Source: Candidatus Marinacidobacterales bacterium (GTDB taxonomy: Bacteria > Acidobacteriota > Vicinamibacteria > Marinacidobacterales > SMYC01). From it: 64,000 nt of DNA. Position numbers and translations under genes: made by a program. Below the pieces are notes generated by a model that saw only the letters and a program-made list of their open reading frames with translations, searched no databases and had not been told where the DNA came from. Shown piece by piece: positions 27,039 to 44,536 of the stretch; within the stretch, counting starts at the first letter, position 1; the number at the start of each line of letters is the position of its first letter. The stretch covers positions 1,280,001 through 1,344,000 of the forward strand of contig CBDCYI010000011.1 in the NCBI GenBank assembly GCA_965224085.1. Reading direction: 5' to 3'.

Positions 27039-28091
27039 TCAGCCGCCCTCGACGCCTTGGACCGCCTGGATGAGCTCTCGCGCGTCGCCGGCTCTTCTTC
27101 CGTCGATGCGCTCGACTTCACGAAGTGCCTCGAGCGCGCGGTCAGGATCTCTTTTCATTAGCTCGGCCTTGCCCAGGAGCCAGAACGCATCCTCGCGGAG
27201 CCTCGTGCTTTGGCCGGATTCCGTCACGATTCGAAGGTGCTCGATAGCACGGTTGAGCCGTGGTTCGCTGTAGGCGAGGACACGGCCAAAGATCTCCGTC
27301 TTCGCTTCGAAGAGCCAAGCGGAACCCGAGAGGTAGTGAGCATAAGTGACGAGACCGGCGTCCGACTCGCCGGCGCTGAATCGCTCGAGAAGCGTTAGCG
27401 CTTCCGAGTAACGACCTTCGTTCATGAGTGATATCCCTTCAGTCAGCGTGCTACCGGAATCTCGTGTCAGAAAACTCGTTTCCGTTGCCTCCACGAAAGC
27501 TAGTTGGTGGTACGGGTTCCGAAGCTACGGTCCCATCCACAAAAAGACGACGAGAAGACAACCGAGGGCCACGCCAGCAGTGGGATAGGGAGGGGTTGAG
27601 ATCAGGGCGTTCTTCGCTCGTATCCAAACTCGTTCGAGCGCTCGTTCGAGCTCGTGGCGAACGGAGACCCTCGAGGGAGGTAGTTTGATGAGCGGTACTG
27701 GCGGGACGCCGGCTTCGGTCAAAAAAATGTCAACTTCGCGATACTGCTCGATGATGCTATCGACCGCCAACCGGCAACGTGGGCACGCACCGACGTGGCC
27801 CTCGATCTGTTGAACTTCGAGGCCGGACAGCCGAGTCTGGTCATAGTCCGCCTCCGTCGGCGCGGCGCGATGAATCGCGAATCGGGTGAGCCGCTCTCCG
27901 TCGACGTGTAGCGGAGCCTCGAAGTTCCGCAGGGCCACCATCAGGGCCCGATATTCCGCGAGCTTCGCTCGACAGCTCTGACACGTCTCTGCATGGCGCT
28001 CGAGATCGATACGCGTTTCGTCACGGAGGTCAGGAAAATCGGTGAGCCGGGCATCGATGGCGTCGCAGGGACTCATCTTGTTGTGTGCCAT
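27039..28091 (-). CDS. Anti-sigma factor: two HxxxCxxC fingers, TM, extracytoplasmic TPR; interrupted by an in-frame TAG (27525-27527)
   Basis: HAETCQSC and HVGACPRC; TM ending FLWMGP; reads GP*LRNPYHQLAFVEATETS in frame into the 27039-27494 ORF; 350 aa if joined. Confidence 0.75.
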
Positions 28092-28092
28092 T

Positions 28093-28677
28093 TCAGCCCA
28101 GCCCGCTCCGGGTCGACTCGAGCAACCATTTCAGTAGTAATGTCGTTGAGAAAGTGAGAATGGTCACATCGAGAGCCGAACGAAGTTTGGCGAGGTTCCG
28201 CTTGACCTGCATCTTCACTCCGCTCACACTCAGGTCGGTCTTTGCCGAGATTTCCTCGTACTTGTAGCCATCGGCTCGCATGAGCAGGATGCGACGACTC
28301 TGCTCCGGCAGTTGTTCGAGCGCCTTGTGCAGGTCCAATCGGCGCAGGATCGCCTCGGCCGGATCCTCGCCGGATGTCACCTCGTCTACCTCCAGCGATT
28401 CTTCCGGGTGTCGATACTTCTTTCTCAAGTAATCCTGGGTCACGTGGACGGCAATCTTGATGATGAAGCCCCGTAGGCTCATGCGCTCACGGAGGAACCG
28501 TATGAAGGTCTCCTGACAGAGCTCTTCGACGACGTCGGGGTTTTGGAACCGGCGCCAGAAGTACTTCCGGATGGGCGGGTCCAGCTCGCGGCAGAGCGCG
28601 TTCAGAGCGGCGTCGTCACCCGCGGAGGCTTTTTTAAGAAGCTCCGCAAGGAGACGCGCGGTTCGATCTTCGGCCAT
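28093..28677 (-). CDS. ECF sigma-70 factor
   Basis: GDDAALNAL, VEELCQETF (region 2), LEQLPEQSRRILLM, GYKYEEIS, VSGVKMQVKR (region 4). Confidence 0.92.
   Translation of the reverse strand: MAEDRTARLLAELLKKASAGDDAALNALCRELDPPIRKYFWRRFQNPDVVEELCQETFIRFLRERMSLRGFIIKIAVHVTQDYLRKKYRHPEESLEVDEVTSGEDPAEAILRRLDLHKALEQLPEQSRRILLMRADGYKYEEISAKTDLSVSGVKMQVKRNLAKLRSALDVTILTFSTTLLLKWLLESTRSGLG
28142..28168 (-). promoter_or_regulatory. Candidate ECF promoter inside the sigma gene 3' end
   Basis: TGTGAC-N17-CGAC about 50 nt upstream of the anti-sigma ATG; the same motif occurs at 32465-32491. Confidence 0.5.
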
Positions 28678-28737
28678 TGCGATGGGACCCCGATGCTAAT
28701 GAGCCCGCACCCATTGTGTTCGGTTAGCAAGAACATA

Positions 28738-31725
28738 TCACGTTGCAAGCGACCGTGAACCGCGGCGTTTCCACATAAAGCCTATGGCTGCGCTCAATAG
28801 GAGAAAGCCGCTGACGGGCACGAGCCAGTCGCGCTCGGGACGACGCTTTTTGGGCAGAGCCAAAGGCCGCCAGTCTCCGTTCAGAATGAAGGGCGCCCAA
28901 TAAAACGGGTCTTTCTTATCGCCTCGCGACGCGTGCAAGTAATCGAGCTTGGCTTGGCGTAACGCCTGCTTCTTGCTTGAACCCGCTTGCAGGTGCCGAT
29001 AGAAGAACTCCATGATGCGCGCCGTCGCGTCGTCATCGACACTCCACAGACTGACTACCAAACTCGGCACACCGGCATACAAGAAGGCACGGCTGATGCC
29101 GATGAGCCCCTCGCCCTTGCGGAGGTTGCCCAAGCCCGTGTTGCAGGCGCTCAAGACCGCGAGCTCGGCGTTCAACTTCGCGTCGAAGATCTCGTAGGTT
29201 TGGAGGACGCCGTCCGCGAGCGCGATCCGTGAGTAGAGCGGCTGCCGATCATCGTTCCAAAAATGGGTGGCGAAATGAAGCACCCCATATTGCTCGGCTT
29301 CTTGCTCGAAGGCGGTTTCTGTCGCCGCGTCACCCGTAAACACACTGTTCTCAAAGCCCTCAAACGCGGCTTGAATGGCCTCCACTTCAGCCTCAGAGTT
29401 GGGAAGACGCGGCGTTCTGTCCATCGTGTCCGGGAAAGACGGGTTGCCAAAGGCGATAACACCTTTTCTAGATTCTCTTGGTCGCTTCAACGTCGGATCG
29501 AGCACACTCGCCGAGGCTGAGTACGATACCGCGTAGCGCTCGACCAAGAAGGTGGCGGCAGAGAAATCGTAGCGGTGCTCGGCGTCTCGACTCTCGATGA
29601 CCAGCACTTCGAACGGCAGATAGAAAAGGAAATCGTCGGGGACGATAATGAGCTCAGCGCTTTCGGGCAGCCACGCTTCCACGGGTTCGAGCAACGTTTG
29701 GTAGAGAGCTCTTGCCGGAGGCAAGGAAAAGTCCGCAAGCTCAGGGTTGAAGACCCTGAAGACTTGGCCGCTGGACTTCGCGTCGAGGGCGCCGTCGACT
29801 TCGAATAGAGGGCTCAGCTTCGCGAGCCGTCGTCTCAGCTCCTGCCTGCCCACGGGCACCTCGCGGTAGTGGAGCTCGTCCCGACTCACGACGAATACGG
29901 AGAGACTCTCCTCGCCTATCAAGTATTCCACCAGGACCTGGTCGGGCTCGAGTACCCTGGATTGAACGCTGGCCACATCGAGCGGCTCCGAAAGAGCCAT
30001 TTCATAGAACTCGCCGTTCTCCTCTCGGACGCGATCCAGAAGCAACGACTTCCGAAGCTCGAGCGCCGTTATCCGCTCTTCGAGCGTGACGGCGGTCGCG
30101 ACGTTGCCTAGAATACGCGAGCGCATCCGTGAGAGCTCGGCGTGGTTTTCTGAAAGCTCAGCGCGTACCGCTTCAAGCTCCAGACGAAGGTCCTCAGGCA
30201 GGTGGGTCTCGAAGAGCGTTTGTCCTCTCGCCAAGATGTCGAGAAAACCTTTTGCTTTGAATTTCTCCGTGAAGGCGAAGGCTTCCTTGAAAGCACCTTC
30301 GGCGGCCAAAAGCTGCACGATCGCGGGATAGGCCTCGTACTTATCCTCGAGAAACGAGCTTCCCAGCGATTCGATGGCGAGCCCCTCCCGCACCTCGTCG
30401 TAAAGCGCGATGGCTTCTGCGTAATGCGCTATCGCCTTCGCCGCTTCACCTTGCATCTTGTAGGTCGAGCCGAGCCCTGCCTGAGCTTCCCAAACGGCTT
30501 GAACCTCACCCGTCCGCTCTCCGATCGATAGCGCTCGATTGTAGTACGCAATCGCTTCAGCGTTGTAATAGCGCAAGGCCTCCGCGAGATCGCCGCGACC
30601 CTGGAACGCCTCAGCCATGTTGGCGAGGGTCACACACTGCTCAGTCCTGAATCCATACTCACGCGCAAGCATCAAAGCTTCGCGATAATGCGCGAGGGCG
30701 CTCTCATAGCGCCGAGCTTCCTTGTGTACTGAGCCGACATTGCCGAGGGCGATGAGCTCGGCTCGGATGTCTCCACTGTCTCGCGCAAGCCTGAGGTTAG
30801 TCCGGAAATATTCCAGCGCTTTTTCGTGGTCGCCCGCCATCGCGTAGACCGCGGCCGCGTTGTTCACACTGCTTGCTTCCCTACTTCGGTCTCCGATCTC
30901 TTTGGCGAGGTTTAGAGATTCGTGAAGATAGTCCAGCGCTTTCAGGTAGTCCCCCCGAAACCATGCAATCGTGCCCTGCATCATCGCCGCATAGGCGAGC
31001 ATTTCGAAATCACCACGACGATCGGCCGCTTGCCGCAAGGCCAGGCACGATTCCCAACTCTTTTGGTACCTCCCAGTCCGAAAGTAGCTCTGCACGAGCC
31101 CGTGGTTGGCTTGCGTGAGATCGGGATTGAGCTCGAGCGCCCTCGTGAAAGACCGAATGGCTTCGTCGACTTGGAAACTTTGAGCGTAGCTCCAGCCCAA
31201 TCCCAACAATGCGTTGGCGTTTCTCGGGTACGCGATCGTGAGGGCTCCGAAGTAATCGATCGCAGCATCGAGCGCGTCCTTGGCGCGATACACTTCGACC
31301 AGCCCGCCATGCACACCATAGGGCTCGGCAAATTCTGGCTCGAGGCTTACCGCACGCTTCAGTTTCTCGAGCGCTCCGTCGACGTCGCCCTCGTGAAAAT
31401 CGAGCCGCCCCAGTCCGTAATGCGCGTACGCATCTCGTGGATCGGTTTCGACCCGCTCTTCGAAATAGCTGCGCGCTCCGCTCACATCGTGCAGCAACAG
31501 GAAGAGATCGACAAGGGCTCGATGGACAGTGTCGAGATCGGGGTGCTCGGAGGCGAGTTGCTTTGCGTCCCGAAGGGCGAGGCGATAGGCGGACTCGCCC
31601 CTCAGCCTGAGGACTTCGAGAAGACGTTCGCTCATGCCCGACTGCGCCGACGCAAGCGACCCTGCCACGACTGCACAGGCCGTAAGCGCGGTGACGAGGC
31701 CGGGGGCGAGCGAGTCGCTCCGCAT
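28738..31725 (-). CDS. Exported TPR-CHAT (caspase-like) protease with C-terminal membrane anchor
   Basis: Signal peptide; long TPR array; CHAT motifs IVPDD.L..LPFE, LHFATH, LSACNT, SLWSVDD, PFYWAPF; C-terminal TM followed by KRR. Confidence 0.92.
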   Translation of the reverse strand: MRSDSLAPGLVTALTACAVVAGSLASAQSGMSERLLEVLRLRGESAYRLALRDAKQLASEHPDLDTVHRALVDLFLLLHDVSGARSYFEERVETDPRDAYAHYGLGRLDFHEGDVDGALEKLKRAVSLEPEFAEPYGVHGGLVEVYRAKDALDAAIDYFGALTIAYPRNANALLGLGWSYAQSFQVDEAIRSFTRALELNPDLTQANHGLVQSYFRTGRYQKSWESCLALRQAADRRGDFEMLAYAAMMQGTIAWFRGDYLKALDYLHESLNLAKEIGDRSREASSVNNAAAVYAMAGDHEKALEYFRTNLRLARDSGDIRAELIALGNVGSVHKEARRYESALAHYREALMLAREYGFRTEQCVTLANMAEAFQGRGDLAEALRYYNAEAIAYYNRALSIGERTGEVQAVWEAQAGLGSTYKMQGEAAKAIAHYAEAIALYDEVREGLAIESLGSSFLEDKYEAYPAIVQLLAAEGAFKEAFAFTEKFKAKGFLDILARGQTLFETHLPEDLRLELEAVRAELSENHAELSRMRSRILGNVATAVTLEERITALELRKSLLLDRVREENGEFYEMALSEPLDVASVQSRVLEPDQVLVEYLIGEESLSVFVVSRDELHYREVPVGRQELRRRLAKLSPLFEVDGALDAKSSGQVFRVFNPELADFSLPPARALYQTLLEPVEAWLPESAELIIVPDDFLFYLPFEVLVIESRDAEHRYDFSAATFLVERYAVSYSASASVLDPTLKRPRESRKGVIAFGNPSFPDTMDRTPRLPNSEAEVEAIQAAFEGFENSVFTGDAATETAFEQEAEQYGVLHFATHFWNDDRQPLYSRIALADGVLQTYEIFDAKLNAELAVLSACNTGLGNLRKGEGLIGISRAFLYAGVPSLVVSLWSVDDDATARIMEFFYRHLQAGSSKKQALRQAKLDYLHASRGDKKDPFYWAPFILNGDWRPLALPKKRRPERDWLVPVSGFLLLSAAIGFMWKRRGSRSLAT

Positions 31726-32019
31726 TCGAGATTACTCCAAATGACGCGCAATCAGACCATACTACAAATGGCTAGTGTCCTGTCCCAGTAATTCGTTAGC
31801 ATAAAGCTCGAGGTTATTTTGTGTGGTGGCGAGGCGTGCCGACGTCTCGGGATATTTCGAGCCGCCTCGAGCAGTTGAGCCTGTCGAGCAGAGGGCTAGG
31901 CGGAGGCCGAACTGGAACGATACCGAAACGAACCAGCGCGCAAAAGGGACCGAGGTTTGTGTGACGAACTTCTGATACAGGGCACGAACTTGGAGGAGTT
32001 ATCTCTGTCGGCAGGTGGT

Positions 32020-32059
32020 CTCCGCACGGCGGCCTCAACTCAGAGACCGCCGTGCAGAG
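32020..32059 (-). terminator. 17-bp stem-loop after the small peptide ORF (no U tract)
   Basis: Minus strand CTCTGCACGGCGGTCTC-tgagtt-GAGGCCGCCGTGCGGAG pairs fully with two G-U wobbles; the plus strand would have C-A mismatches. Confidence 0.65.
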
Positions 32060-32067
32060 GTAGAACT

Positions 32068-32121
32068 CTAGTCGTGGACCATCCAGCGCACACCGGCCTG
32101 GATCCGGGTTCTGACTTTCAT
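32068..32121 (-). CDS. Putative 17-aa peptide MKVRTRIQAGVRWMVHD
   Basis: Manual translation; AGGGGT RBS-like sequence upstream; strong hairpin starts 9 nt after the stop. Confidence 0.55.
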   Translation of the reverse strand: MKVRTRIQAGVRWMVHD

Positions 32122-32124
32122 AGG

Positions 32125-32377
32125 GCACCCCTACAAGTTCGGCGTCGCTGGTCGCGCAGAGGTGTCGCCGGGAGGTGCGTCGCCCCGCGCTGGACGCCGG
32201 TTTCTTGTTCTTGCCTGCCTCCCCCCAGCGCTTCAGTGGGGGGCACGGAAGCCTGGCTCCTCACAACGGCAGCCGAAGACTCCAGCCGCCGAAGTTGGTC
32301 GAGTTCCCAAGTTAGGGGGAACGCCAGCCAGTAGGGCCCGCGTTAGGGGCTAGACGAACATCTAGATTTTTGGGTAA
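32125..32377 (-). ncRNA. Candidate structured 5' leader or ncRNA
   Basis: Stem-loops at about 32350-32365, 32303-32322, 32267-32291, 32221-32243 and 32140-32199, several with minus-strand G-U pairs; promoter TTGTCG-N18-TATAGT (-10 at 32389-32384). Confidence 0.45.
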
Positions 32378-32464
32378 CAAACCACTATACCATCGGTCCG
32401 CTGTGTTCGACAAGCTCGCCAGATTCGAAGAGATTCAACAGGCGCCCCGAAAACAGGAATCGCG

Positions 32465-32491
32465 TGTGACTTTCTCGAGCTAGGAACCGAC
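32465..32491 (+). promoter_or_regulatory. Second TGTGAC-N17-CGAC candidate ECF promoter
   Basis: TGTGAC 32465-32470, CGAC 32488-32491, upstream of the pseudo-receiver gene. Confidence 0.45.
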
Positions 32492-32605
32492 TCTACAAAC
32501 GAGCAGCGACAAAGTTTAGGCGCCTTGCTGCCAGCTTGGACTTTTTTCAAAACGCGCGCTGGGGTTCGCACGACGTGTGATCGACTATCACGAAAGGCTC
32601 AATAT

Positions 32606-33349
32606 ATGGCGCACCAGGATTTTGTCCCAACGCTGCTACTCGTCGAGCGCTCCGGGAAAGAGTCCGAAAGGTACCGAACGCTAGCGAAACGCGCCGGTTT
32701 CCGAGTCTTGACGGCGAAGTCCGCACCCATGACGCGCGTCGTCGCCCAGCGCTCCCGGCCGGGTCTCGTATTGTTGTCTCCTTTGACGGGGCCGCCAGGT
32801 GCCTCGGAGATCGCGCGCAGCATCAAGGAAGACCCCAAGACGAGCGACATTCCAATCATGATCCTCGTCGATCGCGCTGGTCCACCCCTGTCCCGCGTCT
32901 ATCCGACCGAAGCGTGCGCGTCTACAGCGGCGAGTGACGAAGACCTCGTCCAAACGATGCGAGCGGTCCGCAGTCGCCGACGGACGGAGCGCCGCGAACC
33001 GGAGCCTTCGAGCCCACTCGAGGGAGATCTCGCGGACGACACCCTCCCCGGTGTGCTCGAGTTCCTGTTTGCGACCGAACGTACGGGCCGCATAGTCGTA
33101 CTCGAGGGAAGCAGACGGCCGGGACATATCTACGTCGAAGAAGGTAATGTCGTTCATGCCGAGATTGCCCAACAACGCGGTCTCGACGCGTTCAAAAGGA
33201 TGTGTTTTCTCACCCACGGCCGATTCAAATTCGAGCCCGAGTTCCGTGCGGGTGTGAGGACCATGACGGAGAACGGCATGAAGATGCTCTTGGAGAGCGC
33301 CCACCAGCGCGACGAGCTCGATCGAGCGAGGAGCGTCGCCCGCGGCTAA
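32606..33349 (+). CDS. Pseudo-receiver domain + DUF4388 protein
   Basis: REC-like fold (GFRVLTA, RPGLVLLS, IKEDPKTSDIPIMIL) lacking the acceptor Asp; DUF4388 (LEGDL..LPGVLEFL..RTG, G.VVHAE). Confidence 0.8.
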   Translation: MAHQDFVPTLLLVERSGKESERYRTLAKRAGFRVLTAKSAPMTRVVAQRSRPGLVLLSPLTGPPGASEIARSIKEDPKTSDIPIMILVDRAGPPLSRVYPTEACASTAASDEDLVQTMRAVRSRRRTERREPEPSSPLEGDLADDTLPGVLEFLFATERTGRIVVLEGSRRPGHIYVEEGNVVHAEIAQQRGLDAFKRMCFLTHGRFKFEPEFRAGVRTMTENGMKMLLESAHQRDELDRARSVARG

Positions 33350-33369: not shown

Positions 33370-36141
33370 TTAATGGATCCCGGCTAGCGCCTCGATGTCG
33401 GCACGGGTCGAAGCACTCCAGCCGGAGAACGCGTCGATCACGCTCCCACGGGCGTCGAGTACGAGGGTGAGAGGAACCGTGAGCGACGAGCCGGCGAAGA
33501 TCTTCCCGAAATCAGACTCAGCGAGCGTGTAGTTGGGGTAGGAAATCTGCCGCGCCTCCAGGTAGCCTGGCACCGCGCCCGTATCGGTGTCGACGCTGAT
33601 ACCAACGAGCTCGACACCCGCCGCCTCGAGCTTCGGAAATAGTCTCTCGAGCTCGGGCATCTCCACGGCGCACGGCACACACCAAGTCGCCCAGAAGTTG
33701 ACGAGCATCTTTCGCCCGGAAATACCGAGAGCAGCCCTCGGGTTTGCGCCGACGGACGTGAGCGCGAGCTCTGGAAACGACTCGCCAACGCCTACCGCCA
33801 GGGTCTTGAAGAGCCTTTCCGATGGCGTTCGCGGCCGGGGCAGCTCCAGCCGGTCGAGATCGAGCTCTGAGAGGCCTTCACCCTCGACGAGACGCACGCT
33901 CTCGCCGCTGTGAACGTCGTAGCGCTCTTCGAGCCCCGACGGCCAAAGCACCGATAGCGGATAGGGTCCATCGGGTGCGTTGGGCCCGAGCCCAAAAAGA
34001 AGGCGCGCGTCGCTAAAGGAGAGAAAGCCGCTCCCACCGGATTTGATTTTCGTCTGCGTCCCGCGCGACGTTTCGAGCTTCACGACCGCGCCAAAGGCGT
34101 CGGACGCTGATCGGGTCCCGCGAAGGGTAACGCGCACGAAATCGTTGTCCTGGCCCACGTTGTTGCGATAGACGAGACGGGCGGTCTCTTGCACGGGCAC
34201 GATCACGACATCGAGATCCCCGTCATTGTCGAGATCGCCAAAGGCAAGACCGCGTCCATCGCTGATGGAATCGAGGCCGGAGACACCGGAGACGTTTATA
34301 TAGGTGCCGTCGCCTTGGGCCAGGTAGAGCGCGTCGCGCTCGAATCCGCTGAAAGACATCCCCTCCTCGAACAGCTGCGCCATGTGCTCGTTCTGATAGG
34401 TGCTGTTGCCTGCCTTCTCCTGCTCGCTCGCGGACGCCACGACGTGGCGCCAGAAGAGGCTTCACGTGTCCTTCATCGTCTTGCCCGAGACGAAGCCGTT
34501 CACCGAGAACGCGTCCTCCCAGCCGTCATTGTCGAAATCGAAAAAACCCCCGCCATAGGCCCAACCGGCGCCGAAGCCGCCCGCCGCCGAGGCGACGTTC
34601 ACGAACGTGCCATCGCCCTGGTTCTCGAAAAGCGAGTTCCCTGCGGCAAGCTTTTTCAACAGCGCGGTATCTGCAGTTGCAGTGGCATCGGGCATGAGAC
34701 GAGCGAGAATGCGATTACCCGCGGTGGAGGACATGTTCGTAACGTGGAGGTCCAGGTCGCCATCGTTGTCATAGTCGCCGAACGACACCCCCATACCGTT
34801 TCCAGGATCCACCGCACCGCGTAGGGCGGCCTCGTCTTCGAAATCGTCACCTCGATTCATGAAGAGCGCGTTTTCTCCGAAATCGTTGGCGACATAGAGA
34901 TCTTGGCGCCCATCGCCGTCGACATCGGCGAACGCTGCGGCGTAGCTCCACCGACGATCGGCCACGCGCCGCGAGCGCGCCTCTTCGCGAAACGTGCCGT
35001 CGCCCTGATTGATGAAGAGCAAGTTCGGCGTACCGTTTTCAGCCCGGCTCCACGAGTCCGGCATGATCTGCCCGTAGAGATTGTAGGAGCTCACATAGAG
35101 GTCCGTATAGCCATCTCCGTTCACATCCGCCGCGGACGTGCTGAAGCCCACCGCACGATGGTCGACACCCGCCTCCACCGAGACATCGAGAAACTCTAGC
35201 TTTCCCGAAGGCCGCAGCTGGTTTTGTAGCAGAATCTGCTCGCCAACAGCCGCCATGAAGATGTCCCGATCTCCATCGTTGTCGTAGTCGACTAGGAGCG
35301 TCCCCGTACCTCTGCGGCTGAAGAGAACGAGCGTCTCGTCGGAAACGTCGCGAAAGGTCGAGCCACTATCGAGCGTGTTCAAAAAGAGGCGGTTTCCGAG
35401 AACGCCGCTCGTGAAGAGATCGGCGCGTCCGTCGCCATCGACATCGCCAATCGCCGCGCCATGGGCCACGAAGCCATCGTTCGGCGCGACCCCGAACCGT
35501 GGGACGTTCTCCCAGAGGCCCAAAGGTTCGCTCACCTCAGAGAACAGATCTTGCCGCGAGATGAGTGAATCGAGGTTCTGGAATCGCCAATAGTCGACGA
35601 CCCACCGCTCCTCGGGACCGAGGTGCACGCGGGCTTCGATATTGCCTCGCACCCACTCGCGATGACCCGCAGGATCACGTCCGATAAGAAAGAAGAAGAC
35701 AGAGGCCTGACCGCGGACCGGCTGAGAGAGCTCGAAGTCGGCCTTTATGACTTTGAAGCGAACATCTTCGAGGTGCGTGAAATGAGCGAGAAAGCCTTCG
35801 AGGCTCGCAAGGAACACTTCGCGCCCGACGGGCCGAGCCTCGCGATCGAGCTCCCACCCATGACTCTCGATCCACTTGACGACACGGAGGCTAGGCCCGG
35901 CTTTGGAGGGAAAGAGAGTGGCTTCGAACGGTTTGCGCTCGCCGAAGCTCGCTGCGACTTGGGCGAGGTCCTGCCCGCGCAAAGACACGGAAAGCTCGAG
36001 AAGCTGATTGGCGAGCGATTCGGACAGGTCTTCCACGCGCTCCAATTGGGCGCGGTCGAGCTCGATGGGCTGCGCCGATGCCGAGAGCGCGACACCAGCA
36101 AAAAACCACGCGAGCACACACGACCCTACCCTGCGCATCAC
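33370..36141 (-). CDS. Secreted FG-GAP/CRTAC1-like, ASPIC-UnbV, TlpA-thioredoxin fusion; putative selenoprotein (in-frame UGA 34462-34464), 923 aa
   Basis: FG-GAP repeats (GDVDGDG, DYDNDGD, DFDNDGWED) continue past the stop (GDLDNDGDLD); junction KDT*SLFWRHVVAS is in frame; ASPIC-UnbV region; NFWATWCVPC..EMP. If not read through, it is two ORFs. Confidence 0.8.
34433..34451 (-). promoter_or_regulatory. Bacterial SECIS-like hairpin
   Basis: GGCGCCAC-GUC-GUGGCGUC: 8-bp stem from +11 after UGA, apical loop at +19 starting with G. Confidence 0.65.
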
Positions 36142-36192: not shown

Positions 36193-37986
36193 TCAGCGTT
36201 TCGCAGGAGCCAGCTTCCGCAGCTCCTCTCCCAGAAAGGCGGAGACCTCTTTCACCGTGGCGAGACGGAGAGCTTCTTCCGCAATGGCCCGGGCTTCGCT
36301 TGCGGACAACCGCCGGATCAAGTTTTTGACGGTCGGGATCGAGACCGCGTTCATCGAGAGCTCATCGAGGCCAAAGCCGACGAGGAGTGTTATGAGGAGC
36401 GGATCCGCTGCCATCTCGCCGCACATACCGACTTTGATCCCACCTTCATGCGCGGAGTCGATGACGAAGCGGAGGGTTCGGAGAACGGCGGGATGAAGCG
36501 GCTCGTAGAGATACGACACCCGGTCGTTGCCGCGATCGACGCCAAGCAGATATTGGATCAGATCGTTGGTGCCAATGCTGAAAAACGCCGCCTCTTTCGC
36601 GAGAAGGTCCGCCGTCGCCGCCGCCGAGGGCACTTCGAGCGTCACGCCGCAGGGCAACTCGTCGCTGAAATCGAGCCCGTCGCGCCGAAGCTCGTGCTTC
36701 GCCTGTTCGACAACGCTCATCGCCTCGCGGAACTCACCGACACCACTCACCATTGGAAACATCACTTTGATGTTCCCATGGACCCTGGCGCGCCACAGTG
36801 CGCGGAGCTGTTCTTTGAACAACGTCCGATGCCTGAGCAATAATCGCACCGCTCGCAGTCCGAGCGCCGGATTGGCCTCGGAGCCAGAAACGTCGTCTCC
36901 CAGTTGCTCAGCGGAGAGATCGAAAGCACGCACGATGACGGACCACGGCTTCATCCGCTCCGCCATCTTGCGATAGACGACATATTGCTCCTCTTCGCCC
37001 GGAAACGCTCCGCGGCTTCTGGTGAGAAACCACTCCGAGCGAAAAAGACCAATGCCTTGCGCGCCGTTTTTCTCCGCCGAAGTGCACTCCTCGGGAAACT
37101 CGATATTGGCTTGAAGCACGACTTCGAAGCCGTCCGTCGTCTCCGCGGGCAAATCGCGCAAATGCTCGAGCTTCTGCCCGAGCGCTTTCTCACGGCGCCG
37201 CTTCGCACGGTATTCCCGCAGCGTCCCGCGATCGGGGTTGACCACGATGATCCCTTCGCTTCCGTCGAGGATGAGAGGCGCTCCGTGGTCGACTTTCTTC
37301 ATTAGATCCCGAACCCCGACGACACAGGGAATGCCAAGGGAACGGGCAATGATGGCGGTATGGTAGGTGCGGCTTCCGACTTCCATGCCGAGGCCCGCCG
37401 TGTGGTCCCAGTCGAGCTGCGCCGTATCGGACGGCCGCACGTTCTCGGCGAGGAGGATGTAATCCCTCTCCAGCTTTACGAGACTCCGGTTAGGCGCACC
37501 AGCGATATTGCGCACGAGCCGTCCGGCGACGTCGAAGATATCGCCGCGCCGCGCCCGGAAGTAATCGTCTTCCACACGATCGAAAACCGAGGCGAGCTCC
37601 TCGAGCGTGACCTTCACCGCCCATTCGGCGTTCACGCGCTGCTCGCGGATCACTTGCTCGACCCGCCCGATGAGAAGCGGGTCGTCCAGCATGAGGATTT
37701 GGGCATCGACGATATAACCATGATCTTCACCCAAAGCATCGACCGTGCGCGCTTTGACGGCTTCGAGCTGTTTCTTCGTGAGCTCCGTGGCGTTTTCGAG
37801 CCGCGCGACCTCAGGCTTCACCTCCTGGCGCCCTAGGGGGATGCGAAAGAACGGGACTTCTTGGTAGTCGAAAACGAGCGCGCGGGCGATGACGATTCCT
37901 GGAGCGACGCCGATGCCGTGCAGGACCAGGGGCTCTGGCCGGTCGGCACGGTCCAGAGGCGGTGACGTCGGCGCGCTCGTCGTCAT
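36193..37986 (-). CDS. ptsI: PTS enzyme I
   Basis: GSRTYHTAIIARSLGIP, GIGLFRSE, EANPALGLRA, SIGTNDLIQY, GMCGEMA. Confidence 0.96.
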   Translation of the reverse strand: MTTSAPTSPPLDRADRPEPLVLHGIGVAPGIVIARALVFDYQEVPFFRIPLGRQEVKPEVARLENATELTKKQLEAVKARTVDALGEDHGYIVDAQILMLDDPLLIGRVEQVIREQRVNAEWAVKVTLEELASVFDRVEDDYFRARRGDIFDVAGRLVRNIAGAPNRSLVKLERDYILLAENVRPSDTAQLDWDHTAGLGMEVGSRTYHTAIIARSLGIPCVVGVRDLMKKVDHGAPLILDGSEGIIVVNPDRGTLREYRAKRRREKALGQKLEHLRDLPAETTDGFEVVLQANIEFPEECTSAEKNGAQGIGLFRSEWFLTRSRGAFPGEEEQYVVYRKMAERMKPWSVIVRAFDLSAEQLGDDVSGSEANPALGLRAVRLLLRHRTLFKEQLRALWRARVHGNIKVMFPMVSGVGEFREAMSVVEQAKHELRRDGLDFSDELPCGVTLEVPSAAATADLLAKEAAFFSIGTNDLIQYLLGVDRGNDRVSYLYEPLHPAVLRTLRFVIDSAHEGGIKVGMCGEMAADPLLITLLVGFGLDELSMNAVSIPTVKNLIRRLSASEARAIAEEALRLATVKEVSAFLGEELRKLAPAKR

Positions 37987-38258
37987 CCGGTCCTCTTTTC
38001 GCCGAGCCCTTCCGAGACGAGCGTCACGAGCGCGTTCACCGCAGCTTCCTCGTCCTCGCCGGTCGCGGAAATGGTGATGACGCTGCCTACTGCCGCTACG
38101 AGAAATAGTATGCCGAGGATACTCTTGCCGTCCGTCGTTGTTCCGTCTTTCGTAATGGTGACTTTCGAGCGGAACTTCGTGGCGGTCCGCACGAACCGAG
38201 CCGCGGGCCTCGCATGAAGGCCGAGAACATTTACGATCTCGACGCGTCGTTCAACCAC
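37983..38258 (-). CDS. ptsH: Phosphocarrier HPr
   Basis: GLHARPAA (His15) and GKSILGIL (Ser46); GTG start 38258. Confidence 0.94.
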   Translation of the reverse strand: MVERRVEIVNVLGLHARPAARFVRTATKFRSKVTITKDGTTTDGKSILGILFLVAAVGSVITISATGEDEEAAVNALVTLVSEGLGEKRTG

Positions 38259-38691
38259 TCTCGGCGTCCTGCTCTTTCTTTTCCTTCCGCGCCAGCAGAT
38301 CGCCAGCAAGGTAGATACTGTCTTTACCTTCTCGCGCCGCTTCGGAGGCGAGCTCCAAGAGGCCGTCCCCCTCTTCCTCTTCGCGAAGGCTCGCGAGTCG
38401 TATGAGCATTGGCAGGTTCACACCCGTCACGACCTCGACCCGACTTTTCTCGAGAAAGGTCAAGCTCAAATTCGAGGGCGTGCCACCGAACATGTCGGTG
38501 AGGACGACGGTGCCTTTGCCAGAATCGGCGCGCAGGATGGCTTCCTCGATCTCTCTTTGCGCATCGTCCGGGCTCTCGTGCCAGCCGATGGAGACCGCGG
38601 TCACGTTCGGAATTTCCCCGATGATCATCTCGGCCGCCGAGACGAGTTCGCGCGCGAGCTGGCCATGGGTAACGACCACGATGCCGATCAC
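38251..38691 (-). CDS. PTS EIIA, mannose/fructose type
   Basis: MIGIVVVTHG, LTDMFGGTPSN, GVNLPML. Confidence 0.93.
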   Translation of the reverse strand: MIGIVVVTHGQLARELVSAAEMIIGEIPNVTAVSIGWHESPDDAQREIEEAILRADSGKGTVVLTDMFGGTPSNLSLTFLEKSRVEVVTGVNLPMLIRLASLREEEEGDGLLELASEAAREGKDSIYLAGDLLARKEKKEQDAESG

Positions 38692-39573
38692 TCAGACGGT
38701 CTCCACATCTCTATGCGAGATCCGCACACGCTGACGGGCGCTCTCGAGTCGCTTGCCGATATGGTTCGAAATCGCCACTGAACGATGTCTACCACCGGTG
38801 CACCCAATGCCAATCGTAAGATTGCTCTTGCCCTCCGCCGCGTAGTGCGGCAGCAGATAGTCGAGAAAGGACGAGAGCCGGTCGAGAAACTCCTCTGTCT
38901 GCGGTTGCGCGAAAAGAAAGGACTCCACCTCCGCGTCGCTCCCCGTCTTCTCTCGGAGATCCGTCTCGAAGTATGGATTGGGAAGAAAGCGCACGTCAAA
39001 CAAGAGGTCCGCACCCAAAGGAATGCCGTTCTTATAGCCGAAGGACAAAACGTGAATCGCCGGCCCCGCGCGCTCCGCAGTGTCGACAAAGCTCTCGAGC
39101 ACGTGTTGACGAAGCTCGTGGACCGTCAAGTTCGACGTATCCACGATCCGATCCGCGATCTTCCGAATCGGCGCGAGCTCTGCCTCTTCCCGCTGAACCG
39201 CGTCCTCCAGTGTGTCTACGTCACCATCGCCTTGAAGCGGATGCGGGCGGCGGCTCTCGCTGAAACGCCTGACAAGGACGTCGTTACGCGCCAGTAAAAA
39301 GATGACTGTCGTGGGAAAGCCGCGCTCTTTGAGCTGTTCATGCGCTTCGGGAAAATCTTCGAGAAAGCCTCGTTCCCTGATGTCAGTGACGATGGCGACG
39401 CGGTCGATCTCGCCGCCTTTCGCGGTGAGCTCGGCGAAGGGCAAGATGAGCTTCGCCGGCAGGTTGTCGACGCAGAAAAAGCCCGTATCTTCGAGCGCTT
39501 TCATCGCCAGGGTCTTCCCGGAGCCGGAAAGCCCGGTAATAAAAACGAATCGCGCTCGCGCTGGCTGCGACAT
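38692..39573 (-). CDS. rapZ: RNase adapter RapZ
   Basis: ITGLSGSGK, CVDNLP, RRPHPL, SFGYK.G, DVRFLPNP, GCTGGRHRSV. Confidence 0.96.
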   Translation of the reverse strand: MSQPARARFVFITGLSGSGKTLAMKALEDTGFFCVDNLPAKLILPFAELTAKGGEIDRVAIVTDIRERGFLEDFPEAHEQLKERGFPTTVIFLLARNDVLVRRFSESRRPHPLQGDGDVDTLEDAVQREEAELAPIRKIADRIVDTSNLTVHELRQHVLESFVDTAERAGPAIHVLSFGYKNGIPLGADLLFDVRFLPNPYFETDLREKTGSDAEVESFLFAQPQTEEFLDRLSSFLDYLLPHYAAEGKSNLTIGIGCTGGRHRSVAISNHIGKRLESARQRVRISHRDVETV

Positions 39574-39608
39574 TCAACCGGTCCACATGGGGCTTGTGGT
39601 CGCGCGGC

Positions 39609-40154
39609 TTACTCCGGGTCGATCAGCCCCAGATTCCCGTCGGGCCTCTGATAGAGAACGTTGGTGCGATCGTTGCTGGCATTTTTGAAGACGAGAAACT
39701 CCCCGCCACCCTCTTCGAGTGCTAACACCGCCTCTTCGACCGTCATCGGTTTGATGAGGAAGCGCCGGCTCTCGATCACATTCCGCGACTCCGGGCCCGA
39801 GCCCTCGCCGCCGGCGAGAACGTTCAACGTGCCCTGACCATCACTCTTTGGAGCGCGCCGTCGTTTCTTGTCGATGCGCTTGGCGCGGTGCTTTTTCGCT
39901 TGACCTTGAATCTTTTCGAGCGCCTTGGTTACCGAGGACTTCAAGTCATCGGTCGCTTCGGTCGCAGACATATGGACGCCCCCACGACTATGAACGTTGA
40001 GCTCGGCAATCTGGCGATACTTTTCCGTCGACAGAGTGACACGGACATCGGTGATGCCATCGATAAATTTGTCAAGCTTTTCCACGCGATTCTCGATATA
40101 GGACTTCAACTTCGGTGGCACATCCATATGCCGAGCCGTGATTTGAATCAACAT
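39609..40154 (-). CDS. hpf: Ribosome hibernation factor, long HPF
   Basis: IQITARHMD N-domain; KPMTVEEA, FLVFKN, NVLYQRPDGNLGLI C-domain. Confidence 0.92.
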   Translation of the reverse strand: MLIQITARHMDVPPKLKSYIENRVEKLDKFIDGITDVRVTLSTEKYRQIAELNVHSRGGVHMSATEATDDLKSSVTKALEKIQGQAKKHRAKRIDKKRRRAPKSDGQGTLNVLAGGEGSGPESRNVIESRRFLIKPMTVEEAVLALEEGGGEFLVFKNASNDRTNVLYQRPDGNLGLIDPE

Positions 40155-40206
40155 GGCGCACTCCGACGACCGGAGCGAACGCGCGCGACGAGCATGGATG
40201 GTCGTG

Positions 40207-41721
40207 TCACGAAGCGAACGGGCTGCTATAGAGGTTCTTTCTTTGGTTCGAAGGTGGGATCCGCAGCTCTTCCCGATATTTGGCGATCGTACGACGCGCC
40301 AAAACGAGGCCTTCGTCCTCGAGGATCTTGACGATCTTGGAATCGGAGAGAGGTTTTTTCGGGTTCTCCTCGTCCACGATTTTCTTGATTCGCCGCTTAA
40401 TGGTGACCGACGAGACATTGTCCCCGCCTATGCTGGCGATGCCGCTATGGAAGAAATACTTCATGTCGAAGACACCCTGGGGCGTGTGGATGTATTTGTT
40501 AGCCACGACACGCGAGACGGTCGATTCGTGCATGCCGATATCGATCGCGACATCGCGTAAGACCATCGGCTTGAGGTGCTCGACACCGTTATCGAGAAAA
40601 TCCTGTTGCTGGCGCACGATGCTATTGGCGACTTTGTAGATCGTTTTCTGCCGCTGGTCCACCGACTTGATCAACCATAGAGCGCTTCGCAGCTTCTCTT
40701 TGACATATTCGCGGGTCGAGTGGTTCTCCTCGGACTTGTTCTCGAGCATGCGCCGGTAGATCGGGCTGATGCGAAGCTGCGGCAGCCGGTCTTCGTTTAA
40801 CACGATCTCGTATTTGCCGTCGACTTTGACCACATAGACGTCCGGCGTGACGTAGAAGCTTTTTTCGGTCGTGAACTTCGAGCCGGGCTGTGGGTCGAGC
40901 CGCCGGATGATTTCGCAGTGATGGATAACCTCTTCTAGCGGCAGGCGCATCGCTTTCGCAATTTCGTTAAAACGGTGGTTTTGCAAGTGGTCGAGATGCT
41001 CGTTCACCATCGTTTCCACGGGCGTGTTGCCGACCTCGAGGCGACAGAGCTGAATCAGGAGGCACTCCTTCAGATCGCGCGCGCCGACACCGACGGGGTC
41101 GAAGGCTTGCACCATCGCGAGTGCGTCCTCGACGTGCTTTTGCTCGTAAGGGCCCATCTTACATAGCTCTTCGATCGACGCTTGTAGATAACCATGCCCG
41201 TCGATGTTCCCGATAATGGCCTCGCCAATCTCGGCGATCTTCGCCTCCACCGTGACCATGCGCAATTGCCAGTCCAAATGGTCCGCGAGCGAGTTCGTCG
41301 TGGAGAGCGTGTTCTCGATGGGTGGAAGGTCCGGGACTTCGTGGCTCGTCCGCGGGCGATAGCCTTCGTCGAGATAGTCGCTGAAGAAAGACTCGTAGTC
41401 GATCTCGCTCAGCGAGTCGTCGGTCTTCGCGTCGGGCTCGGGCTCAGCATCGACCTTGGCATCGGGTGCTTGAGCTTCGGTCGTGCCTTCGCTCGCAGCG
41501 TCGCTCGTCGAGTCATTCGCGTCATTGGCGGGTTCCGTCGTCGCTTCCGTTCGCTGTTGCTCGAGCTCTTCCTCGAGAAGCGGGTTCTCCGTGATCTCTT
41601 GCTGGAGCATGTCCGCGAGCTCGAGGGTGGACATGGGAAGAAGCTTGATCGCCTGCTGCAGCGAAGGCGTCAGGATCAGCTTCTGCTGAAGTTTGACCTG
41701 AAGTGTTAGCTTTTGCTGCAC
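40207..41721 (-). CDS. rpoN: RNA polymerase sigma-54
   Basis: LQQAIKLL, DPVGVGARDL, MHESTVSR, RpoN box ARRTIAKYRE. Confidence 0.97.
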   Translation of the reverse strand: MQQKLTLQVKLQQKLILTPSLQQAIKLLPMSTLELADMLQQEITENPLLEEELEQQRTEATTEPANDANDSTSDAASEGTTEAQAPDAKVDAEPEPDAKTDDSLSEIDYESFFSDYLDEGYRPRTSHEVPDLPPIENTLSTTNSLADHLDWQLRMVTVEAKIAEIGEAIIGNIDGHGYLQASIEELCKMGPYEQKHVEDALAMVQAFDPVGVGARDLKECLLIQLCRLEVGNTPVETMVNEHLDHLQNHRFNEIAKAMRLPLEEVIHHCEIIRRLDPQPGSKFTTEKSFYVTPDVYVVKVDGKYEIVLNEDRLPQLRISPIYRRMLENKSEENHSTREYVKEKLRSALWLIKSVDQRQKTIYKVANSIVRQQQDFLDNGVEHLKPMVLRDVAIDIGMHESTVSRVVANKYIHTPQGVFDMKYFFHSGIASIGGDNVSSVTIKRRIKKIVDEENPKKPLSDSKIVKILEDEGLVLARRTIAKYREELRIPPSNQRKNLYSSPFAS

Positions 41722-41773
41722 GTCGTCCTAGCTGTGGTCTACCAGTCGCCTCAGTCTCTAAGCATGTTCCGTC

Positions 41774-42499
41774 TTAATCGAGTCGAAAATCCTCACCGAA
41801 GTAAACCCGGCGAACATCTTCGTTCTCGGCTAACTCCTCGGGAGTTCCTGCACAAAGAATCTTCCCGTCATTCATTATATAGGCTCTATCGGTGATCTTC
41901 AGGGTTTCTCTGACATTGTGATCCGTCACGAGGATACCGATACCTTTCGATTTCAGATGATGGACGATTTCTTGGATGTCGCCGACCGCGATCGGGTCGA
42001 TGCCGGCGAACGGCTCGTCGAGGAGCATGAAGGAAGGAGAGGTGACCAGCGCGCGCGTGATTTCGGCGCGGCGGCGCTCGCCGCCGGAGAGCGTGTAGCC
42101 ACGGGACCGAGATTTGTCTGCAATTCCAAGCTCATCCAACACTTCCGCCAGTTTGCGCCGCCTCTCCCGAGGGGTTAGAGGCAGTGTCTCCAAGATCGCT
42201 AGAACGTTCTCTTCTACCGTCAGTTTTCGAAAAATCGACGGCTCCTGCGGCAAATAACTGATGCCACCCCGTGCCCGCAGATACATCGGCAGCGAAGTGA
42301 TGTCCTCGTCGTTCAGGAAAACCTTACCGTAATCGGGCCGCGTCAGCCCGACCACAATATGAAACGATGTCGTTTTGCCCGCACCGTTGGGCCCGAGCAA
42401 TCCGACCACCTCGCCCTCGCGCACTTCGAGGTCGACAGCGTCAACAACCTTTTTCTTACGAAAAGATTTGGCGAGCGCTTCGCCCCGCAGAACCTGCAT
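41774..42499 (-). CDS. lptB: LPS export ATPase LptB
   Basis: [48 protein letters not shown]. Confidence 0.96.
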
Positions 42500-42505
42500 C
42501 AGAAA

Positions 42506-44536
42506 TTAAAAAGGGCGAGGTTTTGATGAGTACGTGGTCTTGGTTCGGTTCTGTTCTTGACCGTCGACCAAGATTTTATCATTCGATAAAAAGAAAGTCA
42601 ACTGCTTGCCTTCTGTGAGTTTACCGTCATTTTGGAGCCAAGCTTGCTCTCCTTCGAGGGTCATACTTTGTTCGTCCGGCAAGTATCTTGCGTGCTCGCC
42701 GGCGGCCTTTCCGTCGGCGGTAGAAATTTCCACTCCGCCCTCGGCATAGATCTCCTCGACCCCGCTTCCGCCTTTGCCGAGCCGAACCTCGACACGGTTG
42801 CCTTGAAGCGTCATCTCGGTCGAGCGCATTAGAACGCCGTCTTGATATTCCAGCACTTCGTCTGCCGCACGGTAGTGAAGGCGCGCCGCGTTCGTCACCG
42901 TAGGCTCTACCGGACTACCCGCTTCCCCGTCGCCGCTCCGGACTAGCTCCTGCAAGAGAACCGTTCGTACATCGCCTTCCGCAATAAGATCACCCACCTT
43001 CTGGAAGATCTGGATGGTATCGGCTTCGACACGGCCCCGTCCCTGGAAGCCGCGCGCGCCTCCGGTATAGACCGCGAGCTCTCGGCTCCGATCGTAGACA
43101 AGATGATCCGCGACAAAGTACACCGGTTCTTTTTCGGTGGAAGGAAACAACCCTACGCCCGGCTCGCCCGCCGACGAGGAGCCCGCTGACAAGGAGCGGA
43201 CTTCCTCGATGCCCTCGACGTTGCCGCTGTCCAGATCCACGATGATCCTTCGAGCTTCGAGGCTCGCCCGCGGGTCCCAGAGTCGAGGCGACTTTCTCAG
43301 AATGAGTCTCGAGTTGGCCGCACGGAAAATGCCTTCCTCCGCGGTCGCGCGAACATCGCCTTGCTCGAACTCCACAGCGCGCGTACACCGAGCCTCCACG
43401 AGGTCACCGGTCGCTGGGTCGAATTCGCTTTCGATCTGCCGCGACCTCACAATCTTGCGCGCGCCGTCATCGCCACTCGGCGGGATCAGAACAAGCGTCA
43501 CACCGCCGCGCCCGCGGAGTTTGGTGAGCTCGCCTTGCTCATCGAAGTCGAAGGCGAGCGTGTGGCCACTCAGCTCCTTGTGATAGCCCTCGGTCGCGTT
43601 GTCGGGGAGCCGCAACTCGAGCCGCGCGCCATTGAGAGCGCGCATCCGCTCGAGGTCTTCGCCCGAGGGGCGAAAAAGCATCTCGAGGCGCTCGGTCGAA
43701 AGGCGCTTCGTTCCGGCCTCCGCGGTCAAAGCGCCCGACATCTGGCTATCGTCCTCGCCGACTTCTTCTTCCGACACTTGCATGTTCATGACAACTTTCT
43801 CGAAGGCATGGATGCGCTCGACGCCATCGTGGTCGTCGTTCAAGAAGATCTGAAGGTCATCGCAAGTCAAGGACTTGTTTTTCTGTCGCACGTCGACGCT
43901 GTCGAAATATTGGACCCAGTGGCGGTTTCTGTGCATGAAGGCCGTCTCGCTCTTGATGTGCACGGGAGCTTCGGAGCTTGGGAGAAGGGTCATATCCACG
44001 CCGTCGCCGAGGTCGAGCTCGCCCCGCTTGATGATGTAGATCATGCTGCCGGCATCGCCGACGATGTCATCTTTGAAATAGCGCACCGGCGAACGGCTCC
44101 ATACCCGATCCGGGAACCGGCGAAACTCGAGGGACTTCGCCTCTAGGCGGAGCGAGGTGTTGTCGCGCACGACGACGTTACCCTGAAGATGGACGGAGCT
44201 GTCCCGGCGGACATTACATAGATCCGCAGTCACCACGACGGGCGTGTCGTCCGCGCCTACGTTGAAGTGGATCTCCGCGTCGCGAAACTGCTGGCCAGAC
44301 TCCGTCTGACCGACGCTCTCGGCCGCTTTCAAGGTCCAAGCCGTGTTTCCGTCCGAGTCGAGCTGCTCGAGCTCCACCTGGCGCGACGTAATGCTTTCCG
44401 GCTCGTCAGGGATGTCCAGTGTGGCTACCGTAGCCGAGCGCATCCCAGCGCGGAGGTGATGAACAACATAGCCGCCACAGACGAAAAAGAGCGCGAGGAG
44501 CATCCACTTGATGATGCGGATTTGCGTGAAGGTCAT
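42506..44536 (-). CDS. Long LptC/LptA (OstA-repeat) protein
   Basis: N-terminal TM then multiple beta-jellyroll repeats; upstream of lptB; start ATG 44536 overlaps the accA stop. Confidence 0.85.
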   Translation of the reverse strand: MTFTQIRIIKWMLLALFFVCGGYVVHHLRAGMRSATVATLDIPDEPESITSRQVELEQLDSDGNTAWTLKAAESVGQTESGQQFRDAEIHFNVGADDTPVVVTADLCNVRRDSSVHLQGNVVVRDNTSLRLEAKSLEFRRFPDRVWSRSPVRYFKDDIVGDAGSMIYIIKRGELDLGDGVDMTLLPSSEAPVHIKSETAFMHRNRHWVQYFDSVDVRQKNKSLTCDDLQIFLNDDHDGVERIHAFEKVVMNMQVSEEEVGEDDSQMSGALTAEAGTKRLSTERLEMLFRPSGEDLERMRALNGARLELRLPDNATEGYHKELSGHTLAFDFDEQGELTKLRGRGGVTLVLIPPSGDDGARKIVRSRQIESEFDPATGDLVEARCTRAVEFEQGDVRATAEEGIFRAANSRLILRKSPRLWDPRASLEARRIIVDLDSGNVEGIEEVRSLSAGSSSAGEPGVGLFPSTEKEPVYFVADHLVYDRSRELAVYTGGARGFQGRGRVEADTIQIFQKVGDLIAEGDVRTVLLQELVRSGDGEAGSPVEPTVTNAARLHYRAADEVLEYQDGVLMRSTEMTLQGNRVEVRLGKGGSGVEEIYAEGGVEISTADGKAAGEHARYLPDEQSMTLEGEQAWLQNDGKLTEGKQLTFFLSNDKILVDGQEQNRTKTTYSSKPRPF

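Follow-up and report, generated by a model that had tools for sequence, protein, structure and literature searches.

What does an in-frame TGA mean in the middle of a long FG-GAP protein gene: a lesion, a boundary between two genes, or a UGA codon decoded as selenocysteine (Sec)? The question arises at a locus on the minus strand of a 64,000-nucleotide stretch from a Candidatus Marinacidobacterales bacterium of the Acidobacteriota (assembly GCA_965224085.1, contig CBDCYI010000011.1, positions 1,280,001 to 1,344,000). We call the whole stretch the window and count positions from its first letter. Two open reading frames (ORFs), one of 559 amino acids (aa) at 34462..36141 and one of 356 aa at 33370..34440, share one frame on this strand. 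A TGA (34462-34464) and the seven codons S-L-F-W-R-H-V are all that separates them, and the ORF listing and translation bear out this layout, on which a preliminary description of the DNA had remarked. Reading the TGA as Sec (U), we obtain a protein of 923 residues with U at position 560. We find that the split gene is a real feature and very probably encodes a genuine selenoprotein, judging from sequence comparisons. We are also fairly confident that the locus is one gene for a predicted exported selenoprotein of 923 residues, whose UGA would be recoded by SelB and tRNA-Sec under the direction of a hairpin. Such recoding is the ordinary bacterial mechanism. The gene and the codon are placed as follows.

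33370..36141, minus strand: the whole candidate selenoprotein gene, 923 codons and a TAA stop; the start is the GTG at 36139-36141 or an ATG one codon further in.
34462..34464, minus strand: the in-frame TGA (predicted Sec560), in a column shared with 57 of 71 loci; public contigs agree.

Performing a six-frame search (E <= 1e-60), we looked for the gene in 301 genomes of the same phylum. All tallies over this sample include three unpublished genomes (G049, G152 and G024). The search gave 85 matches: 61 had exactly one internal TGA, 24 had no internal stop, and TAA or TAG was found in 0. The TGA form was present in 50 of the 301 genomes, G049 and the window's own genome (G000) among them. An orthologue aligned over residues ~1-920, across the TGA, with 44-56% identity in 39 genomes, and 11 further genomes held only a second, longer paralogue type. 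This longer type has the identical domain order followed by C-terminal TPR repeats, and it recurs in other genomes. The window's genome has both types. Codon-level reading covered 71 of the 85 matches. The TGA stood in one column (D-T/L-U-S-x-F-W-R-H/Q-V-V) in 57 of these loci, and a sense codon occupied it in the other 14.

We also checked the window's genome for relatives of the gene. It encodes a second selenoprotein of the same family (G000:C5:2082025-2084142, minus strand; locus L004:838-4473) with 37% identity to the first. The second member carries its TGA in the same column (KDL-U-SFFWRQVV), has WCAPC in its thioredoxin domain and ends in a TPR tail, like others of the longer type. The other FG-GAP paralogues of this genome (L005-L012) showed no internal TGA of this kind.

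Database proteins gave the same picture from the annotation side. For this, residues 400-720 were used as the query and the best 120 hits were taken. As many as 77 of the 120 were gene calls of 526-635 aa that stop at exactly this residue (...SGK-S/T-M-x-D-T), with 66-96% identity to the window protein over that part. A pattern scan of 80 loci in named genome records, mostly distant CRTAC1-like loci with the Sec column unaligned in 23 of the 80, extended the search to other phyla. The same TGA was seen in 10 loci plus one doubtful, and most remaining loci lacked the S-x-F-W-R motif in the aligned stretch. Titles of the TGA-bearing records include Planctomycetota, Phycisphaerae, Pirellulaceae, Roseibacillus, Verrucomicrobiales and Akkermansiaceae. 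Public contigs from 4 runs of three studies cover 34300-34650; their letters are identical at the codon, none differing, so no contig shows a sense codon there, in a comparison that may hide rare variants. In summary, conservation of the UGA, and of the frame before and after it, extends over deep divergence and at least three phyla. Because the TGA is conserved in 61 of 85 matches, in 77 of 120 hits and in other phyla, with TAA or TAG never in its place, it is not a lesion.

The machinery for Sec insertion was found in the window's genome. SelA scored 457 bits and SelD 279.6 bits (cut-off 125), a SelB wing domain lies within a 649-residue frame, and a tRNA-SeC has the anticodon tca. Thus, selA, selB, selD and tRNA-Sec, which the preliminary description had proposed to look for, are all present. 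SelA was found in 47 of the 50 TGA-form genomes. Over the whole sample, SelA occurs in 236 of 301 genomes (158 of 186 genera), and Sec use looks very common in the phylum. In one genome (G021), the orthologue is followed on its own strand, after about 700 bases, by a selA gene (L041:4706-5782, plus strand; TIGR00474, 441.7 bits). In another (G175), selA lies about 4 kb downstream of the orthologue. A neighbour of locus L036 with an AIRS fold was considered as a SelD and rejected, as it is HypE.

The preliminary description had also pointed out an 8-bp hairpin that starts 11 nt past the UGA and has a G first in its loop. We located it as follows.

34433..34451, minus strand: the selenocysteine insertion sequence (SECIS)-like hairpin GGCGCCAC-GUC-GUGGCGUC, within the codons W-R-H-V-V-A-S.

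The hairpin has 8 contiguous base pairs, the loop GUC and a free energy of -12.0 kcal/mol. Ten bases separate the UGA from the stem, which starts at the 11th base, and 18 nt lie between the UGA and the apical loop. The bacterial SECIS model of Zhang and Gladyshev, as given in section 5 of PMC13188914, calls for a loop of 3-9 nt with G in its first two positions, a stem of 4-16 bp, 16-37 nt from UGA to loop, and a minimum free energy (MFE) of -7.5 or lower. The window hairpin satisfies all four constraints as that section states them. Its likeness to the consensus lies in the 3-nt loop beginning G-U, the 8-bp stem, the 18-nt spacing and the -12.0 kcal/mol, and its difference in a triloop that sits at the lower limit of the model. 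Variants with Q in place of H have the loop GGUCG.

We compared 49 distinct 51-nt sequences around the TGA to see how the helix has been kept; since related sequences are not independent, the figures for the hairpin are descriptive and are not probabilities. The 8-pair helix formed in 83.2% of cells, in comparison to 77.2% after column shuffles (0 of 500 reached the observed value) and 34-72% with slid partners. One pair, between position 3 of the Arg codon and position 1 of an Ala, Thr, Ser or Pro codon, was CG in 30, GU in 6, GC in 5, UA in 4 and AU in 2 sequences. Given these five pair types, an amino acid substitution at the 3' partner goes along with a silent change at the 5' partner. Where the next codon is GCU or GCA, the helix is retained by means of a one-base bulge. 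Locus L082, with the divergent peptide F-W-N-S-V-V-P-H-W, still forms a hairpin of 7 bp equally far from the TGA. Compensatory changes have preserved the hairpin.

As the helix overlaps conserved codons, we ran a synonymous-codon control in which each 30-nt window was set against 300 versions whose synonymous codons were redrawn according to the codon usage of that gene. The TGA forms had a mean MFE of -12.5 kcal/mol against -8.5 for the resampled sequences (n=44; median fraction at least as stable 0.083). In comparison, the sense-codon homologues had -8.0 against -7.8 kcal/mol (n=14; median 0.505). All 44 distinct TGA-form windows fold at -8.4 or lower, bulges permitted. Thus, the hairpin is stronger than synonymous recoding gives, and in the TGA forms only. 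The covariation that the preliminary description had proposed to look for is there, and the excess over the synonymous expectation is confined to the same forms. In metagenome-like runs, several extra contigs match only about 50 bases (34432-34485, the TGA and the hairpin) with 3-5 differences and raise a local peak of depth. By these matches, the TGA with the hairpin is the best-kept DNA stretch of the gene among co-occurring relatives.

Several observations weigh against a Sec-encoding gene and have to be set beside this evidence. The 71-nt stretch taken in isolation folds no better than chance (z = -0.69 against shuffles), its conservation being what exceeds chance, and the hairpin coincides with the conserved peptide W-R-H/Q-V-V-A, for which the most frequent GC-rich codons pair anyway. 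In a strict bulge-free test with the four limits of the bacterial model, 35 of 49 TGA forms passed, and so did 4 of 14 non-TGA forms. The failures among the TGA forms were bulged variants and a group at -7.3. Rfam gave no match for 34350-34500 at E <= 10. In 3 of the 50 TGA-form genomes, the search gave no SelA: G081 (99% complete), G230 (95%) and G255 (69%), all of which have SelB and SelD. Cys stands at the Sec site in just 4 of 43 full-length database hits (P0007, P0016, P0021 and P0034) and in 0 of the 14 homologues with a sense codon in the genome sample; at this site, the sense forms mostly have Ser or a variety of other residues. So scarce a set of Cys homologues is unusual for a selenoprotein. 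In the nearest full-length relatives without a stop (P0002, P0003 and P0004; 64-66% identity), the Sec column is occupied by R, V and L, respectively. As a side observation, the SelD genes of G081 (C9:30237-31163) and G255 (C447:829-1755) contain one in-frame TGA each, which is the known Sec form of SelD. The SelD of the window's genome is without an in-frame TGA.

We next describe the predicted protein, with Sec560 and its surroundings seen in an AlphaFold model (47-sequence alignment; mean predicted local distance difference test (pLDDT) 91.3; predicted template modelling score 0.90). Its parts are given below from the N-terminus to the C-terminus.

36070..36141, minus strand: putative signal peptide, residues 1-24 (MMRRVGSCVLAWFFAGVALSASA/QP), read from the sequence and from orthologue N-termini.
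35557..36054, minus strand: N-terminal alpha/beta domain, residues ~30-195; a long helix and four long antiparallel strands in the secondary structure of the model.
34162..35469, minus strand: seven-bladed FG-GAP beta-propeller, residues ~225-660 (Pfam FG-GAP_3, 1.1e-36; DxDxDG motifs; Foldseek).
34369..34464, minus strand: helical insert between blades 6 and 7, with helices 560-571 and 580-591 (DSSP on the AlphaFold model; pLDDT blocks 83-93).
33922..34098, minus strand: UnbV_ASPIC domain, residues 682-740 (Pfam PF07593, 1.4e-09).
33412..33789, minus strand: TlpA/ResA-like thioredoxin-fold domain, residues 785-910 (Pfam AhpC-TSA, Redoxin and Thioredoxin_8).
33670..33681, minus strand: CVPC active-site motif with Cys821 and Cys824 (WCVPC at 820-824).

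Translation, Pfam, hits in the PDB and the model agree with the earlier proposal of a 923-aa protein, predicted to be exported, that carries a TlpA-like domain with WCVPC. Residues 1-21 are disordered in the model (pLDDT below 50), and some orthologues have a lipobox in place of this signal peptide. The N-terminal alpha/beta domain may be NTF2/SnoaL-like, going by the model, and the precomputed Pfam list of one relative (P0036) contains PF13577. The seven DxDxDG motifs lie at 233, 285, 339, 406, 456, 535 and 636; therefore, residue 560 falls between the sixth and the seventh blade. The motifs at 535 and 636 bracket the residue, and the Pfam matches confirm that FG-GAP repeats continue on either side of the stop. 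A beta-sandwich covers the UnbV_ASPIC region, and the thioredoxin fold spans residues 785-920 of the model. The Sec had been placed in a propeller loop. Its placement in the propeller stands; in the model, however, Sec560 is the first residue of the helix 560-571 in a two-helix insert rather than part of a plain loop. The N-terminus of a helix is a typical place for a redox-active Cys or Sec. Sec560 lies outside the thioredoxin fold, as had been proposed, in another domain and 261 residues upstream of an all-Cys CxxC. The mature protein has only three Cys-type residues, Sec560, Cys821 and Cys824, and the same is true of many orthologues.

We compared the protein with known systems. The best match in the PDB was murine CRTAC1 (9etn_A), both by sequence search (2.5e-20) and by Foldseek (E 2.5e-29; template modelling (TM) score 0.73 on the target; 20% identity). 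Pfam FG-GAP_3, FG-GAP and UnbV_ASPIC are shared with the CRTAC1 family above gathering scores, which places the protein in this family, and NCBI calls full-length relatives 'CRTAC1 family protein'. Additional here are the predicted Sec in the helical insert between blades 6 and 7, the N-terminal alpha/beta domain and the C-terminal TlpA-like domain. To our knowledge, no catalytic activity is known for the CRTAC1 family. NCBI names the 5' halves 'VCBS repeat-containing protein' or 'FG-GAP-like repeat-containing protein'; therefore, current annotation does not recognise the family.

The C-terminal domain hit TlpA (1jfu, 3.4e-14) and ResA (4nmu, 3e-13; Foldseek 4nmu_A, TM 0.79 on the target) in the PDB. 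With its thioredoxin fold and W-C-x-P-C, it belongs with the TlpA/ResA/CcmG-type oxidoreductases at the level of the superfamily domain. Those proteins are membrane-anchored single domains, whereas here the domain forms the tail of a 923-aa protein. No equivalog match to TlpA, ResA, DsbE or StoA was found in NCBIfam (62.1 bits against 230 for TlpA and 60.7 against 170 for ResA). By its sequence matches, the domain is a member of the TlpA superfamily and none of the named proteins.

Thioredoxin-type selenoproteins form a second set for comparison. Table 1 of PMC13188914 contains a UGC-containing TlpA family, a WAxxUGC ResA-like family and a thiol-disulfide isomerase-like UxxC family. Like the window protein, these are bacterial, of extracytoplasmic type and with a TlpA-like fold, in hosts that use Sec. 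Unlike it, they have Sec within the CxxC, where it takes the place of a Cys; the window protein keeps both Cys of its CxxC and has its predicted Sec upstream. No NCBIfam selenoprotein model matched above its cut-off, and the matches were confined to the thioredoxin part, as with the weak match to NF041054. Among the 119 families in Table 1 of that 2026 review, there is no FG-GAP, CRTAC1 or UnbV entry. Full-text searches, with supplements and subscription journals outside their coverage, found no literature tying FG-GAP, VCBS, ASPIC, UnbV or CRTAC1 to selenocysteine. A term look-up in the selenoproteome papers PMC13188914, PMC12013277, PMC1794560, PMC5029168 and PMC2398784, supplements aside, gave no such link. 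Provisionally, this appears to be a large selenoprotein family that is undescribed in print.

The architecture raises the question of whether the two redox centers work together. We tentatively propose a relay, to which we give somewhat less than an even chance. Sec560 would be the nucleophile of an extracytoplasmic reductase or peroxidase, with the substrate held by the propeller. After turnover, it would be linked as a selenenylsulfide to the CVPC motif in the TlpA-like domain. A DsbD/CcdA-type electron donor in the membrane could then return this domain to its reduced form, as happens with other TlpA-like proteins. In Neisseria, PilB (Trx-MsrA-MsrB) is a catalytic reductase fused to its own TlpA-like recycling domain. 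The analogy would be that of an exported enzyme in which an attached thioredoxin-fold domain, supplied by DsbD/CcdA, reduces the catalytic chalcogen once it is oxidised. The window protein has no sequence or fold relation to the Msr domains, and the likeness is one of architecture only. We count in support of a redox role the Sec at the start of a helix, the presence of only three Cys-type residues, the CxxC retained 245-300 residues downstream in 57 of 57 TGA forms, and the double loss in a nested clade of homologues.

The double loss concerns 13 homologues without Sec that are also without the CxxC. Their residues at the site are D, D, E, E, Q, N, N, S, A, A, G, G and S, and their thioredoxin motif is degenerate. 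In a tree built leaving out the Sec site and the thioredoxin domain, they make up one clade (Shimodaira-Hasegawa-like approximate likelihood-ratio test 97) nested among the TGA forms. Since the 13 form one nested clade, the joint loss of Sec and CxxC is a single event. The pattern fits loss of the whole redox function. Assorted non-Cys sense codons at the site, which had been named in advance as evidence against a selenoprotein, do occur in this clade; the CxxC, however, is lost there too, and Cys homologues elsewhere are rare. The co-occurrence of Sec and CxxC was rejected as statistical support, because the tree shows one co-loss event. It counts 2 changes for Sec loss and 1 for CxxC loss, with 2 independent pairs (sign test p = 1), and this tells against the relay. 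So do five homologues that keep the CxxC without Sec or Cys (L087 with A, P0003 with V, P0004 with L, P0005 with S and P0018 with A), two with Cys at the site and the thioredoxin domain missing (P0016 and P0021), and the absence of a shared neighbour gene among 53 flank ORFs of 27 orthologous loci. In L087, Sec was lost and the CxxC retained.

A wider reading extends this to the fold as a whole, and we hold it to be possible though doubtful. CRTAC1/ASPIC-UnbV propellers may include old and widespread extracytoplasmic selenoenzymes, whose helix Sec would be irreplaceable by Cys and recycled by a built-in CxxC. The relatives with assorted residues at the site would then be catalytically dead descendants.

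The best-surviving alternative is a selenoprotein without the relay. Here, Sec would be a metal or metalloid ligand or a stand-alone nucleophile, and the TlpA-like domain would act on another, external substrate. We regard this as rather unlikely, but the homologues that have one center without the other, and a co-loss of only one event, speak for it. The near absence of Cys replacements fits a role closed to sulfur, and the fold matches include aldos-2-ulose dehydratase (4a7y), a propeller enzyme of FG-GAP type that has a metal in its active site. Against it, the CxxC accompanies the TGA without exception (57 of 57), many mature orthologues have just these three Cys-type residues, and no metal-binding motif was identified around the Sec.

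Read-through or partial termination at the UGA without Sec, by near-cognate insertion or as a regulated mix of the 559-aa and the full-length product, is very unlikely. The hairpin could in principle stimulate read-through, and gene callers and NCBI annotation take the 5' part as a complete protein. However, the stop is TGA in 61 of 61 internal-stop matches and never TAA or TAG, and Sec machinery components occur in every TGA-form genome. The hairpin matches the bacterial SECIS model in its spacing and its G-first loop, and selA lies directly downstream of the orthologue at L041.

A truly split gene, in which the 559-aa propeller part would stop at the TGA and the GTG at 34440 would start a separate 356-aa product, seems still more improbable. 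A GTG is indeed present seven codons past the TGA, but it is the codon of a conserved Val. The intervening codons S-x-F-W-R-H/Q-V rank with the most conserved of the protein and are in frame in 57 of 57 TGA forms, the region is uninterrupted in the sense-codon clade, and the split would cut through the propeller, between blades 6 and 7. Finally, a decaying gene produced by a nonsense mutation, the caveat raised by the preliminary description, or by a sequencing error can be dismissed, as it is contradicted by the same TGA in 50 of 301 genomes and in other phyla, by the conservation of both halves at the protein level, by the 77 of 120 best database hits that end at the site, and by the agreement of contigs from three studies.

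If the locus does encode a selenoprotein, a large family is added to the prokaryotic selenoproteome (50 of 301 genomes of one phylum, plus Planctomycetota and Verrucomicrobiota), and current annotation cuts this protein in half. It would be the first hint of redox catalysis in the CRTAC1/ASPIC-UnbV fold. It would also be a rare case of Sec outside a thioredoxin-like fold with almost no Cys counterparts, and thereby a system for asking what selenium does beyond sulfur. Should the wider reading of the fold hold as well, the protein would be a self-contained redox module of the periplasm or surface for a new class of substrate. The points of interest are thus a host fold without known catalysis, the few Cys forms and the built-in thioredoxin domain. 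The frequency of SelA (236 of 301 genomes) also means that soil and sediment Acidobacteriota use Sec widely.

The surroundings of the gene were checked by a Pfam scan of 11 ORFs between 26000 and 45000. Among these neighbours, there was no evident link to the selenoprotein and no functional clue. No ORF in this region looked broken in the scan, which was not aimed at decayed genes. Downstream (27525-33349) lie a convergent DUF4388 gene, a gene for a 995-aa TPR-CHAT protein and an extracytoplasmic function (ECF) sigma/anti-sigma pair. Upstream, on the minus strand (36193-45043), is a housekeeping row of genes: LptC/LptA-like, an lptB-like ATP-binding cassette (ABC) ATPase, rpoN, hpf, rapZ and ptsI.

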